From Eledone cirrhosa (taxonomy: Eukaryota): a DNA stretch of 64,000 bases. How positions within the stretch are numbered: the first letter of the stretch is position 1; the number at the start of each line of letters is the position of its first letter. The position numbers were made by a program, and so were the translations under genes. A model generated the notes under the pieces. That model saw nothing but the letters and a program-made list of their open reading frames with translations, had not been told where the DNA came from and ran no database searches. Of this stretch, positions 16,955-55,007 are shown piece after piece. The DNA lies in NCBI GenBank assembly GCA_964016885.1, contig OZ024748.1, positions 8,494,001 through 8,558,000 on the forward strand. Direction: 5' to 3'.

Positions 16955-17025
16955 TATTTTATTATGCGCATTTCAAAAACAAAGATCATCATGGGATGAT
17001 ATCTGCGTTCTCATCAGATAAAATA
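16955..17025 (-). ncRNA. Type-I hammerhead ribozyme motif (subfamily 1)
   Basis: Minus strand TATTTTAT-CTGATGA-[imperfect hairpin with ATCAT/ATGAT core]-GAA-ATGCGCAT-A-ATAAAATA. It has an 8-bp stem I, an intact core, a palindromic stem III and an AUA triplet; the base of stem II is degenerate. Confidence 0.75.
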
Positions 17026-17294
17026 GGGATACATGATATGAAGCTTAAAAATCACTTGTGAATAGTGAAGTTTTAAATCAACATATGAAAAATAATTTAA
17101 GATTGATGTATGAGATTGGGAAAAAGTGAGGGGGGGGGGGTTTGGAAAAGGTAAGGAAGAGGAAGAAATGAGAGTAAAGGATGGTGGGGAGGAGTATAAG
17201 AAGGAAGGATGAGAGAGGAGGAGAGATGTATATATATATATATATTTTATGTGTCTCTTGGGTTGAAAAGGAGGTCAAGTATGTTATAAATAAC

Positions 17295-17341
17295 TGCTCC
17301 GAAGAATCCAAACCTCGGTTTGGAGGAAACAATTGTAAGCA
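17295..17341 (+). ncRNA. Degenerate type-I hammerhead motif (U4C core change)
   Basis: TGCT-CCGAAGA-A-TCCAAAC-CTCG-GTTTGGA-G-GAA-ACAATTGT-A-AGCA, then AATAAA at 17342-17347 and (CT)n(TA)n. Confidence 0.65.
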
Positions 17342-18276
17342 AATAAATGACTTAAACTGAACTTTGATTACTGTAATCTCTCTCTCTCTCTATATATATA
17401 TATATATGAATACATGTATATATATATATATATATATCTATTTATATGTACGTATGTGTATGTCTGAAAATAAAACCCACATATGATTCTATTTAGCCAT
17501 GTGTTTGTGTAATACAAATTTCTTAACAAATGTGAAACTGACAACATGTAAATTATTTTAGCATCATATAGAACCATGTTCTATATAACAATAGGCCGTT
17601 TATTTTTCTCTGCAACAAAGCATGGGCTTTAGTGTGGTTACTATGAACTGAAAACTTTGTTCGATGGATTTAATATATATATAACATGTACGTTGCTTAG
17701 GATATATATATATATATATATATACATATATACCAGGGAACGTACATATTATAAATATATATTAAAAGAGAAGAATGGATTTATTAGAGATTGTACCAAT
17801 ATATAAATATTGGTATGCTTTATATATACCAATATATAAAACATACCAATCACGAGTGAAGGCATTCTTATCTTTTTTCAAATATATATATATATATATA
17901 TATATATATATATATATACACTAAAATAACTATATACATATTTTGTATATAGTTCTGGACATGGATCCTTCTAGAGATATAGAGATAAATTACTTCTAGA
18001 TATCAACGGCGTCATCCCACAGACAGAAAGTGGGCAATAGGAAATAATAATTGGTTTTATATGCTCTGGTATTGTCATAAAGTAGACCCATAATATAAGG
18101 AGACCAGCCGAAAAAGTAATGAAATATAATTACATGCAATTAATACATTCTTGTTTATATTGTTAATATATTATATTGTTGTTGTAATTAAACAATATTA
18201 CAGGAGTAGTAATAAAATGTATAAACATAAACTTATAAAAAATATCAAGAAATTGATATATAACTGATGAGATTGC

Positions 18277-18536
18277 TCTGAATTGAGAGATCACAGTTCC
18301 GATACTATGGACATGTGGTTAGAATGGGGTCCTTCTGAAGGTCCTTTGGAGTAACGTTACTGGATAGTGGGCGTAGCTCGGAGATCAGAGAGTCGCTTCA
18401 GGTAGAGCTGCTTCGTCTCCGAATTAAGAGATCGCAGCCCCGATACTATGGGAATGTGGTTAGAAGTTCTCAGGCAATAATCCCTGGATAGATTTTACGG
18501 GCAAAACCAACCGGCAGGAGACCAATGGGTAGACCC
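18277..18536 (+). mobile_element. RTE-clade LINE fragment (Expander/Rex3-like ORF C-terminal region) with short internal duplication
   Basis: 18348-18536 translates GVTLLDSGRSSEIRESLQVELLRLRIKRSQPRYYGNVVRSSQAIIPG*ILRAKPTGRRPMGRP, matching the RTE pattern 'RSSxIRExLxVEPLLLRIERSQLRWxGHxxRM...PTGRRPxGRP'. IERSQFRYYGHVVRM is repeated just upstream. Confidence 0.85.
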
Positions 18537-18683
18537 ACCCTGAGTAAGACGTAAGTAAGTAATTTTAATTCAGTAAACATTAAAGATAAAGATACATCTA
18601 TTGAATGTATATACGGAAGATATATGGATGTAAATATAGAATTCTATTCCCTAAAATACCAGCCATTAACTCTGAGAAATAAT

Positions 18684-18837
18684 ATTTTTTTTCTATTTTA
18701 GGCACAAGTACATTACTGGTACTTTATTTTATCGACCCCGTAAGGATGAAAGGCAAAGTTAACCTCGGCCGGATTTGAACTCAGATTGTAAAGGGGCGTA
18801 ACTATGCTGGAAAGCATGGCGTCCGACCCTCTACCGA
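18684..18837 (-). mobile_element. SINE family A, 11-bp TSD
   Basis: Family A body and B-box. TSD TGAGAAATAAT at 18673-18683 and 18838-18848. Confidence 0.88.
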
Positions 18838-51373: not shown

Positions 51374-51518
51374 GCACCCTCTGTATTATATGTAATATAT
51401 GTAAGATTTTTCATGTATCAATCTTAAGGTGTATAAATATTAAATTTTGTCATATCTTACTCACTGCCATGACTGGATCTTAACCATCTACTATGTCAGG
51501 GTATGTCATGCATCATCT

Positions 51519-51585
51519 TATTTTATCTGATGAGGACGTACTGTTGAAGATAGCTCAGTACCTCTGAAATATGTATAATAAAATA
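51519..51585 (+). ncRNA. Type-I hammerhead ribozyme motif (subfamily 1)
   Basis: TATTTTAT-CTGATGA-GGACGTACTG-[12 nt]-CAGTACCTCT-GAA-ATATGTAT-A-ATAAAATA. It has an 8-bp stem I, a 10-position stem II (one mismatch, one wobble) and a near-palindromic stem III. Confidence 0.8.
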
Positions 51586-53715
51586 TACTTGATCACAATG
51601 AAGTTCTATTTTTGCTAATATTTTGAATGTATATATATATATATGTGTGTGTATTTATATATATATATGTGTGTGTGTATGTATATATATATATATATAT
51701 GTATGTACCTATATATGTATGTATATAGTAAAGAAAAAACATTCTTATATCATCTCTCATTCTATTCTTACCTGTGTTTCCCTGTCTTCCTACCTCTTCC
51801 TCTCATTCTTTCACTCTCCTTTTATCACTATGTCCCATCCCTCATATATATATATATATATATATATATATATATATATATATATATATATATATATATA
51901 TATATATATATATATACCTATATATATATATATGTATATAAGTATACATATACATATTTGTAAATATATATCTATATACCTATATATATATATATACATG
52001 TATATATATATGTATATATGCATATACATATATGTAAATATTTATATATATATATATATATATATGTGTGGGTGTCAGGAATATATATATATGTATATAT
52101 GTGTATGTATGTGTGTGTATACATCAATGTTTGTCCACAAGTTTCTGATATATAATTTCTCTATTTATATATATATATATATATATATATATTTTTTATA
52201 AGTAAACATTAGATGAACCACTCTGCTAAACTAGACACATTTCAATTGTTGTGACAACAGAATCTAAAATGACTCACGTACACTTAACAATAACTGCTGC
52301 AAAAATTCAAATTAAACATTATTTTCGCAATCATATTTATTCTTTTGAAAAACAAACCTTACACGCGAATGTTTTTTTTATAATTTAGCGCTGAAACAAT
52401 GTTTGTTTCTGTGTATATTTGTTTGGATATGATGTTTGTTTAGGTATAGAATTGATAATATCATTCCTTAATACAACTAATTAATAATTTCTTACAATAT
52501 ATATATTACATGTGACCTACTGCGAGATTACTGTTTATTTACGTACGTTCACACACAGACACTGTCTTTCTCTCGTACACTCACATACACATACACACAC
52601 ACACACATTTACAAACACACACAAACACAGACACACAGACACACACACATACACACACACACACACACACACACACATGCACACACACACACACACACAC
52701 ACACACACACACACACACACACACACACATATATATATACACTCACACATACTCTCCGGCATATATATATATATATATATATACACACACACAAACATAT
52801 TCACAAACACACTTATTCAAACACACAGACATAGAACTCCCGTAGACCCCCCCCCCCTAGTGCCCCCTCCCCCACATACAAGTATTTACTATGTTATATC
52901 TTGTATTGAAAATACTACAATATTCTAGTATAATTCTGTCAAGATTTTGTCATATTTTTGCACACCACTCTTGAAGTTTGTTTAGAGCAGTAAATTTTCT
53001 AATTCCATAATAAACGACTTTAGACCGTTTATATTCTCCTCTTTAAGATGAAATGATATTAGAACCCGTTGGTGATTCTTAATAGTAGACAGATCCAATG
53101 AGGTTATCTGGACTTCTTTACCTTCTGATTTTAAGATTTAGAGAGTTGCAGTAATACGTCAGTTTCAGCATTCGGTAATCAGAAGAAGACAGGTAGGTGT
53201 AACAGCCAAATTCGCTAACTTCAATTCGGTATTCGTGCCAACCTTTACCTGAATGGGGGTTTTGGGGGCTGCTATTTCTAGCTATCCACATACCTATTCC
53301 CGTTACATGGACAAAACTGAGACGCGGTAGTTTTTTCGAAACTCCATGATGTGATGGTGTGCAGATGTTGTGACTGACCGCGACAGAATGGACATCTACA
53401 ACATTTAGCGATTGCAATTGATGCCTATAGTATATATATATATATATATATAGAGAGAGAGAGAGATGCCTATAGTGTATATATATATATAAGCTCGCAC
53501 GCACTGCGACGCACAACACACTCATACATACGTATGTATGTTATGGCCCTGTAACTTCTGATAGTGTCATAGAGGCGCCGTATTGACCCTCGGCGATTCT
53601 TGGGTATTTTAAGCTTGGCGGAGCCCATCCCTCTCCAGATCTGAATATACCAGATTTCTTCCAGAGAAATATAGAAAGTAAAAGATTAGAAATGGGAAAG
53701 AGATATAGCGGAAGA

Positions 53716-53860
53716 ACCGACCCCAGTATTAGACTGGTACTTTTTTTTATCGACCTCGAAAGAAAGGAAAGGCAAAATTGACATCGGTGGGATTTGAAGA
53801 ATCGGAACGAATACTGCAAACCATTATATCCCACGTTCTAACGACTCCACCATTTCGCCA
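53716..53860 (-). mobile_element. Degenerate SINE family A copy
   Basis: CGACCCCAGTATTAGACTGGTACTT..TTATCGACC...GAAAGGCAAAATTGACATCGGTGGGATTTGAA. Confidence 0.75.
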
Positions 53861-54774
53861 CCAACATAAATACGTACACACACGTATATACATTTGGATT
53901 ACATTCTTATATTGTGATGTTGTTAATACGTAAAGCTTAAAGCCAAACATGCTTGTCTACATTGGCTAAATACATGCCTTGCATTTAGAAAATTAACCAC
54001 TAATCTGAGGAATTAAAGTACATTTTATCTCACTCAGTACGGCATTTATGAAATAAAAACAGACTTTTAGATGCTACAAAAAACTGTATCAATCTAATCA
54101 TTTTAATTAGCCATGATTAATTAGTCGAAGAAGTAACACTTGACAGGGAGGTAATAGTCATCAACATTACAATTAAGCTGCAAAGAAAAAGAAAAAATAT
54201 AATCAAACATATTTTCAAAAAAATCAGCTGCCGTTGTTGTTTGTTTTTTATTTTATTCTTTTCTCTCGTTTTAGTTCAGTTTTGCCTAATTAGGAGTTAT
54301 AGAAAAAAGTAATACTTCAAAATATTGTGCGTATGTATTTCAGGTATGAGCCTAGTCCGTTGTATGTGAATTATCTTGCTCTCTAGATGATTGTGTATGA
54401 GATTCTGGGAATATATCCTATAGAGACATTCTGAGTTTAGAGAGCTCAATACTAACATAGAGTCACTCAATGTTACAGATTAGAAACATTTCTAATTACT
54501 GAGTGGTTGTGTTGGTAAGTAGTAATGTTGATATGGATGGGTATGGCATTCTGTCTTTGTGTGTGTATGTGTGGTGTCTCGTTATAGCTCTGTGTGTGTG
54601 CATGTGTATATATGTGTGTTTAGATATTATCATTGTAAGCTTGTGTATCTGTGTGTATTTTAACTCGACGCAGAAATGAAATGTGAATGTGTCTAAATAT
54701 ATATATCCTAAGCTTTAATAGATGTATACTCCATATTCTTTAATAGATGTATACTCCGATAGTGCTTCTTGTAG

Positions 54775-54828
54775 CTTTACTTGCCCTGATGAGTCCTTAA
54801 TAGGACGAAACATTGTTGGCTAATAAAG
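54775..54828 (+). ncRNA. Canonical-core type-I hammerhead ribozyme
   Basis: GCC-CTGATGA-GTCC-TTAATA-GGAC-GAAAC-ATT-GTT-GGC. Stem I is extended by CTTTA/TAAAG across a 3x3 internal loop. Overlapping AATAAA, with (TA)n about 45 nt downstream. Confidence 0.85.
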
Positions 54829-55007
54829 ACTTTTGATGTATTGAAGGCTTCTTTGGTTTATTTTATTTTTTATAATATATATATATATATATATATATAT
54901 ATATATATATATATATATATATATATATATATTTATATATATATTTGAATTTGACTATTTTTCATAGTCTAACAACATTGATGGTCTTTCAAATTCAAGA
55001 ATATATA

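Follow-up and report, generated by a model that had tools for sequence, protein, structure and literature searches.

Hammerhead motifs in a microsatellite-rich stretch of the Eledone cirrhosa genome are very probably the 3' ends of Penelope-like elements

Introduction

A 64,000-nucleotide stretch of the genome of Eledone cirrhosa (assembly GCA_964016885.1, contig OZ024748.1, positions 8,494,001 to 8,558,000; hereafter the window) is packed with microsatellites, has 32% GC and carries eight motifs of the type I hammerhead ribozyme kind. What are these motifs, and why do they lie beside TA tracts? A first-pass annotation had read them as several independent families of short insertions lacking open reading frames (ORFs), akin to the pseudo-long terminal repeats (pLTRs) of Penelope-like elements (PLEs) or to retrozymes, which target or seed (TA)n tracts and may help explain the microsatellite load. 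We found all eight motifs where that annotation had placed them, and we conclude with high confidence that they are the hammerhead-bearing 3' ends of six PLE families, A to F, whose longer copies (A, B1, D, E, F) encode a reverse transcriptase (RT) and/or a GIY-YIG endonuclease and which probably use target-primed reverse transcription to enter (TA)n tracts that were already there. In the main, these are new members of known PLE clades and not a new ORF-less system.

The copies in the window are 5'-truncated ends of 140-470 bp, two of them (C and B2) two-armed. Their cores start at 17017 and 24336 on the minus strand and at 17299, 29968, 35939, 36931, 51527 and 54786 on the plus strand. The pieces are as follows, S1 and S2 being two recurrent end points beyond the predicted cut and L numbers denoting fetched genomic loci.

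16912..17228, minus strand: family B1, Hydra-type PLE 3' end, 94% to L046; core 17017-17011, predicted cut after 16963, S1 end in (TA)n 16857-16919.
17245..17390, plus strand: family E, Hydra-type PLE 3' end, 98% to L136; core CCGAAGA 17299-17305 (U4C), predicted cut after 17337, AATAAA 17342-17347; S1 end, followed by roughly 7 units of added (CT)n and by (TA)n; left flank (TA)n 17229-17244.
24105..24349, minus strand: PLE 3' end of a divergent subfamily of D, 86% to L083; core 24336-24330 with one extra base before stem II, predicted cut after 24301; its end has no TA tract.
29894..30154, plus strand: family D, Neptune/Nematis-like PLE 3' end; core 29968-29974, predicted cut after 30002, AATAAA at 30081, S1 end in (TA)n 30151-30211.
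35916..36081, plus strand: family F, Hydra-type PLE 3' end with long stem II; core 35939-35945, predicted cut after 36017, stem I damaged, AATAAA 36025-36030; (TA)n on the left, short TA and then (CA)n on the right.
36780..36893, minus strand: family C inverted arm, a tail running from S2 back towards S1.
36895..37059, plus strand: family C main arm, long stem II hammerhead; core 36931-36937 (decayed, CGGAAGA), predicted cut after 37007, AATAAA 37015-37020, S1 end in (TA)n 37060-37141.
51168..51302, minus strand: family B2 inverted arm, beginning at S2 in (TA)n 51101-51168.
51350..51634, plus strand: family B2 main arm; core 51527-51533, predicted cut after 51577, S1 end in a TA-type tract.
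54697..54871, plus strand: family A, Hydra-type PLE 3' end; canonical core 54786-54792, predicted cut after 54817, AATAAA 54822-54827, S1 end in (TA)n 54871-54944.
13517..13597, minus strand: ninth, decayed hammerhead with long stem II, from the C/F lineage and without its GAAA box; an insert resembling a short interspersed nuclear element (SINE) separates it from a tail fragment at 13188-13220.
26434..26571, plus strand: family D-like tail fragment without hammerhead, 74%.

A further D-like fragment at 37807-37868 retains only the second half of the hammerhead. Near its 5' end (54707-54760), the A copy differs from other copies by a short direct duplication and a deletion, which suggests a template jump.

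Longer copies encode reverse transcriptase and GIY-YIG endonuclease

The window motifs recur across the genome as exact matches, with counts of 2,461 for A (motif 54786), 10,247 for B (17017 and 51527), 160 for C (36931), 8,770 for D (24336 and 29968), 2,254 for E (17299) and 2,378 for F (35939), and reversed-pattern controls for all six family motifs gave 0 copies. The proposal of several families was borne out, with six of them represented. Many genomic matches form outward-facing pairs, or same-strand pairs 4.2-4.9 kb apart, and both the pseudo-LTR tandem arrangement (for example L031-L033, L195, L216, L218 and L219, with L216 a two-unit tandem copy) and the inverted, 5'-truncated arrangement are present. 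Such pairs were fetched and revealed frames for both RT and GIY-YIG between the hammerheads of families A (L031-L035), D (L188, L189, L191, L194), E (L195, L199, L210) and F (L201, L218, L219), with the RT motif YRDD or YVDD and endonuclease motifs of the form I[VI]Y...YIG. For B1, an endonuclease frame lies between the arms in L184, while RT was not recovered for B; B2 is probably linked to a GIY-YIG endonuclease, as a related Hydra-type endonuclease lies upstream in 2 of 20 loci (L279, L297). The search for RT and GIY-YIG ORFs gave none for C in 50 three-kb loci; its hammerhead and tail are homologous to those of F. Overall, the suspected relation to PLEs was upheld by the longer copies of A, D, E and F and, for the endonuclease, by B1.

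The protein pieces were taken from single copies as they stand. Pfam matches stayed below cut-off (RVT_1 at E=7e-4 in a D frame, GIY-YIG at E=7e-4 to 1e-2 in 4 of 10 frames), a PDB sequence search with an E frame gave nothing at E<0.1, and the closest named relative of one linked protein was an Octopus vulgaris protein with 67% identity. None of the six families reached an Rfam or Pfam cut-off, and they are under-annotated as a repeat class. Additional PLE frames, D-like at about 60% or otherwise Hydra-like, lie near fetched copies (L186:6413-7444, L195:288-899, L206:3-668, L280, L293), indicating that there are PLE families in the genome beyond these six.

The families resemble the Hydra and Neptune/Nematis clades

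The Hydra clade has been defined (Craig et al. 2021, PMC8557442) by RWK and DKT motifs, a CxCX5C linker, CxxC and CxH, the absence of CCHH, canonical hammerheads and insertion into (TA)n. In the entries seen of its supplementary files, (TA)n is the target of nearly all Hydra families, including Hydra-1_Obim of Octopus bimaculoides (File S1), and the hammerhead lies near the 3' end (File S2); hence, by these entries, the combination of hammerhead and (TA)n in the window is the published Hydra arrangement. The Hydra-type families here likewise have a hammerhead near the 3' end and insert into (TA)n. From motif reading of their frames, A and E carry RWR in place of RWK, A, E and F carry DKT, and the same three have CxCX5C, CxxC and CxH around a conserved E and N, with no CCHH; the B1 copy has kept CxxC/CxH and lost one linker Cys. 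Family D has a C-terminal GIY-YIG, a CX4CxxC linker, CCHH (L191, L194) and a DKSG motif. Judged by such motifs, A, E and F and, by its endonuclease, B show the features of the Hydra clade, and D is Neptune/Nematis-like, either of these clades being possible.

Comparison with published systems placed these families close to known ones while exposing several differences. With the Hydra clade, as far as the accessible parts of PMC8557442 describe it, they share a palindromic stem III in a sense-oriented hammerhead near the 3' end, insertion into (TA)n, inverted truncated copies and a tail at one end, but they differ in having 3' untranslated regions (UTRs) of 1.0-2.1 kb, units of 4.2-4.9 kb, thousands of copies per family and tails of 85-170 nt against the published 30-40 bp. 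Within the Hydra rows seen of File S2 there is neither a U4C or U4C+A6U core nor a stem II extension of ~45-50 nt. Family D shares with the endonuclease-bearing (EN+) Neptune and Nematis PLEs, as portrayed in the same partial source, CX4CxxC plus CCHH, DKSG and a microsatellite target, but differs in that its hammerhead lies ~150 nt from S1. The minimal type I hammerheads reported from metazoan PLEs (Cervera and de la Pena 2014, PMC4209133, in the text available) resemble those described here in being mostly solo motifs of truncated PLEs, with some inverted pairs 100-700 bp apart and some tandem around an RT ORF, and in having an extra base between positions 9 and 10.1 (family D here), a palindromic loop 3 and predicted activity as dimers. 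In contrast, the core variant reported there is U3-A8, and (TA)n spacing, AATAAA and an alternation of end points were not met in that text.

Hammerhead stems covary, and two lineages carry altered cores

The hammerheads are of the minimal, palindromic-loop type and are predicted to be active only as dimers. Loop 3 palindromes differ between families and yet stay palindromic (imperfectly in D), which fits such dimer activity. C and F are homologous and have in common a conserved stem II extension of ~45-50 nt. When the two were aligned, 90.9% of cells were paired, against 26-40% in slid controls, and 10 of 24 pairs had changed on both sides, the compensatory changes being spread over all three stems. 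Covariation, named beforehand as a check on the motifs, was found. As for the long insert in stem II, a reading as a selenocysteine insertion sequence (SECIS) was rejected by eye: the SECIS hallmarks are an AUGA/GA core and apical AA, and the insert has neither. It may form a kink-turn.

The expected core of CUGANGA, GAAA and NUH is present in A, B, D, most of C and the F subfamily of the window. Two of the eight motifs depart from CUGANGA, namely 17299 with CCGAAGA and 36931 with CGGAAGA; the latter reflects decay of that copy, whereas the former is family-wide, since U4C occurs in 23 of 25 E loci, most of them also with a mismatch at 10.1/11.1. The main F subfamily goes further and carries CCGUCGA (U4C+A6U) in 81 of the first 100 of 1,290 matches, and the same core is found at both ends of coding units. 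According to published work, U4C is reduced but viable and A6 changes are low in activity (Perreault et al. 2011, PMC3088659), minimal PLE hammerheads are of low activity (PMC4209133), and hammerhead mutants do not block PLE insertion in vitro (Frangieh et al. 2024, PMC11167929). The E and F lineages spread with altered cores, and weakened cores on the one hand and mutants that still insert on the other make it likely that cleavage there is weak or dispensable.

The spacing around the motifs was also largely as described. AATAAA starts 4-7 nt past the predicted cut in the A, C, E and F copies and straddles it in both B copies, such that a cut would split AATAAA; in all six it lies within 7 nt of the predicted cut, a 10-nt slot in which chance would place it in 1.6% of cases. 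In the same six copies (A, B1, B2, C, E, F), the distance from AATAAA to the next TA-type tract is 30-47 nt, in agreement with the 30-50 nt previously given; a tract within 60 nt of the cut is expected for 14% of random positions per copy. At 35939 the TA run comprises ~3 units only before passing into (CA)n, and 29968 likewise ends in (TA)n, but 148 nt past the cut. In folds of A, B1 and two F copies, AATAAA is paired within stem I or a stem I extension.

Most two-armed insertions pair the two end points, one per arm

We found the 3' ends of the copies to fall at two fixed sites. S1 lies ~45-55 nt past the predicted cut (~150 nt in D) and S2 another 60-170 nt further on; both abut (TA)n, both are seen in all six families, and main arms end at one or the other in 151 of 170 loci. 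Every family has 2-6 nt of TA-like homology at S1. Two-armed insertions paired the sites unequally: among 51 distinct insertions, 47 were S1/S2, drawn from 56 rows of which 9 were counted twice, 4 were S1/S1 and 0 were S2/S2; in three cases the partner seen was an internal repeat, its arm reaching S2 further out. A hand count of inverted pairs, which overlaps partly with these 51, gave one S1 end and one arm continuing past S1 in 42 of 44, the others being 1 complex and 1 unresolved. The long arm can be either of the two (L031 versus L219).

A scheme for integration may be drawn from this pattern. The endonuclease would nick each strand of the (TA)n target, which is self-complementary, and the two DNA ends so released would prime reverse transcription, one at S1, helped by the 2-6 nt of homology, and the other at S2, with most cDNAs stopping early to leave short cassettes like those in the window. 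As both end points are 3' of the cut site and the insertions run across an intact hammerhead, the template would be uncleaved RNA or re-ligated circular RNA. The accessible text on the anole PLE (PAc Poseidon, Anolis; Frangieh et al. 2024, PMC11167929) offers an in vitro precedent: two internal RT start sites define a tail, both strands are nicked and extended at an AT-rich target, and insertion proceeds without hammerhead cleavage. There, however, the starts are adjacent, within the ORF and without primer homology, while in our families 60-170 nt separate the two starts, which lie upstream of the ORF; S1 has TA-like homology, and one start of each kind is used per two-armed insertion. A common fold of the S1-S2 tail across families was not found, only E folding strongly (z -4.7 and -2.7 against base shuffles); A and E have a hairpin in common just after S1. 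We offer the full scheme only tentatively: a dimer would integrate by priming two cut (TA)n ends at two fixed sites, the RT could fall back and recopy the first 7-11 template bases in the manner of telomerase, leaving short tandem repeats at the junction, and the hammerhead would serve mainly as an RNA-pairing scaffold, so that lineages crippled by U4C+A6U could spread to about a thousand copies.

Several observations weigh against the assignment to PLEs or against parts of this scheme. Placement in clades was made by motifs. The hammerhead-to-hammerhead units of A, E and F are 4.2-4.9 kb long, against the tendency of Hydra elements to be 'generally <3 kb' in the text seen of PMC8557442. No full-length ORF was intact among the loci read, every frame being broken somewhere; the link of B2 to an endonuclease is indirect, and C has no ORF link. 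The C/F covariation compares mainly two lineages with few independent changes, and fold z-scores were strong in just two of the eight window copies (-2.8 for 54786 and -2.6 for 35939), which alone fold clearly better than shuffles. For the scheme itself, the described anole PLE works without the primer-template homology that S1 shows here, and some 'inverted arms' could be separate insertions into one tract.

The rule of one S1 and one S2, the junction-only 9-base repeat described below, the U4C and U4C+A6U cores and the common long stem II were not found in the portions compared of the PLE papers PMC8557442, PMC4209133 and PMC11167929. The one-each rule was not found stated in the literature searched, and the supplements of these papers may already show arm-specific tails, junction repeats or core variants. 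PLE inverted structures, tails and microsatellite bias are named as an open problem in the accessible text of PMC8557442. Thousands of young copies here probably record how PLE integration starts, and specific predictions for the in vitro PLE system already available follow from the one-site-per-arm rule, from the repeats confined to junctions and from the natural core mutants.

Short repeats at the S1 junction may stem from RT slippage

At some S1 ends the last 9-10 nt are repeated. All 41 genomic E copies with a 9-mer end repeat have it at the insertion junction, next to a TA/CT tract, and 0 have it internally, although 41 of 100 E copies read through S1; a third full or partial repeat is present in 5 of these 41. 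In A, a repeat was seen in 7 of 36 terminal copies (3 exact) compared to 1 of 64 read-through copies, one copy having at least 7 repeats, whereas F showed it in 0 of 57 terminal rows despite comparable homology, which suggests a family-dependent cause. We lean, with some reserve, towards the explanation that the PLE RT slips back and recopies its template, akin to telomerase realignment. The background of exact repeats, 18 of 1,109 unassigned TA edges and 0 of 48 5' junctions, supports this notion; yet primed ends of unselected loci carried exact repeats in only 5 of 219, to be set against the same 18 of 1,109, host polymerase stalling at the TA tract after insertion could give the same product, and one read-through A copy has the repeat. 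The 219-end count leaves out five loci picked for their repeat and 12 from the E repeat set, while some of the E loci among the 219 ends were chosen for other junction types.

Template slippage is known at the 3' ends of some long interspersed nuclear elements (LINEs). A literature search covering titles and the starts of abstracts found nothing on such slippage for EN+ PLEs. As PLE RTs are the sister group of telomerase, realigning and recopying on an internal template would matter if confirmed. In other repeat families (L169 and L235; L200), the final 7-9 nt are likewise repeated in tandem where the copy meets a TA tract; these may be further retroelements with the same stutter.

TA tracts are chiefly targets

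The outer flank, where resolved, is usually (TA)n, and many insertions have (TA)n on both flanks, indicating that TA tracts are targets and that each insertion splits one tract into two. The targeting half of the first-pass proposal therefore stands, whereas seeding is limited to junction (CT)n, short repeats and microsatellite cargo in the F 3' UTR. That UTR is unusually long (L219:4028-6140) and carries degenerate TG/TA microsatellite blocks as cargo; the E 3' UTR (L199:3581-5560) is also unusually long, with internal repeats of ~150-300 nt.

It could be argued that the elements create the microsatellite load of the genome by making TA and CT tracts, a reading we consider unlikely. Hand counts gave extra (CT)n in 27 of 58 terminal copies for E and in 15 of 57 terminal rows for F, of which 13 are independent, compared to 0 of 41 and 0 of 42 read-through copies, with the other flank usually (TA)n and not (CT)n, and the blocks in the F 3' UTR point the same way. 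However, (CT)n of at least 3 units also occurs at 60 of 151 unassigned TA edges with TC context, such that ordinary slippage at a new TC-TA boundary is the simpler cause, and three duplicated copies already differ in CT length. Furthermore, TA flanks lie on both sides of insertions, and an assigned PLE piece borders only 10 of the window's 66 TA tracts; hence, these families do not explain the microsatellite load, contrary to what had been suggested.

For the same tracts, two uses were considered and dropped. (CT)n was rejected as proof of RT stutter, as it is equally frequent in F, where the DNA context is the same, and is common at unassigned TA edges. Arm-to-arm divergence was rejected as a clock: arm pairs that differ by 0-2 mismatches do contain long (CT)n, but microsatellite mutation is too rapid for this to be decisive. 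Nearest-neighbour identities are inflated by sister arms and were excluded from dating.

Independent ORF-less elements are improbable

Another alternative holds that the copies are short, independent ORF-less elements, either retrozymes or non-autonomous pseudo-LTRs, which run an RNA cycle of their own and are mobilised in trans. The window itself is compatible with it, as tblastn found no coding sequence there, and so is family C, for which no linked ORF was found in 50 three-kb loci (30+20), long copies were sought and none found, and copies have little common sequence beyond ~400 nt upstream. Moreover, a preprint (Li et al. 2026), as far as its text was available, derives animal retrozymes from PLE pLTRs. 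We nevertheless judge this improbable, because the long coding copies of A, B1, D, E and F share their ends with the short ones and 5' ends vary continuously; the window copies lack coding sequence simply because they are 5'-truncated, and the idea of an ORF-less system was not sustained.

Nor did the retrozyme-like label fit. Non-LTR retrozymes (Cervera and de la Pena 2020, PMC7229834; Li et al. 2026), in the parts of these sources seen, have in common with our families type I hammerheads, a palindromic loop 3 and a proposed PLE origin, but they are non-coding tandem repeats, while the copies here are dispersed truncated ends of coding elements. Copies were solo, inverted ends or 4-5 kb coding units, and no tandem arrays of 200-400 nt were seen. 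The lone tandem array examined (L217, ~1 kb unit) is a later duplication comprising flank, TA tract and two PLE ends, and as such does not favor retrozymes. At this locus (G000:C1:154824500-154832500), each of five tandem units consists of flanking sequence, the tail of an E copy, a long TA tract and, facing the other way, an E end that bears a hammerhead; the array is a satellite born from a PLE-filled TA site.

Chance matches are refuted

That the motifs are chance matches in AT-rich, repeat-rich DNA is refuted by their thousands of genomic copies at a fixed position within PLEs, by 5-7 observed matches against 0.04-0.14 per dinucleotide shuffle and by the compensatory stem changes, even though the descriptor was tuned on known hits, most fold z-scores are weak and Rfam thresholds were not reached.

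The descriptor, tuned after the hits were known, comprised core, stem II, GAAA, palindromic stem III, NUH and stem I. A first, strict version recovered 1 of 8 motifs with the canonical core. The second, permitting one stem mismatch and an extra base while demanding a palindromic stem III, gave 5 matches when the canonical CUGANGA core was required and 7 when the core was relaxed, compared to means of 0.04 and 0.14 (maximum 1) in 100 dinucleotide shuffles of the repeat-stripped region, so that the proposed shuffled control came out in favor of the motifs. Motif 35939 fails the descriptor because stem I is damaged in that copy. The Rfam scan, in contrast, gave no gathering-level match: in the window, the sole hammerhead match among the 150 of 188 rows listed was HH9 at 54770-54840 with 28.5 bits, below the gathering score of 52, and 0 of 7 family loci reached any gathering score. 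Motif density in the window is 1 per 8 kb against ~1 per 114 kb genome-wide for the same exact motifs; the latter derives from 26,270 exact motifs in 3.0 Gb and is a lower bound, and part of the window's excess is ascertainment.

Other repeats in the window

The window also holds a very abundant repeat of ~200 bp, matched in up to 46 fetched loci, with copies at 5841-6051, 13268-13482, 13624-13754, 18733-18839, 23377-23582, 34715-34924, 42730-42857, 56033-56220 and 57166-57257. It has a box-B-like motif on one strand, often lies beside TA or ATT tracts and is, we presume, probably a tRNA-derived SINE; ARAGORN found no tRNA in it. Two more repeat families (23834-24022, 12464-13056 and 26666-26813; up to 25 and 14 loci) have ends that abut TA or ACAT tracts and gave no hammerhead by descriptor. 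A near-perfect 86-bp palindrome centred on (TA)13 at 14531-14616, with a sub-threshold microRNA model match, is possibly a tiny inverted-repeat element or a fold-back. Minisatellite arrays with units of 41, 62, 12 and 34 bp occupy 1-4499, 38216-39121, 46299-47880 and 58722-63939, respectively, and the 41-bp and 34-bp arrays reach the window edges.

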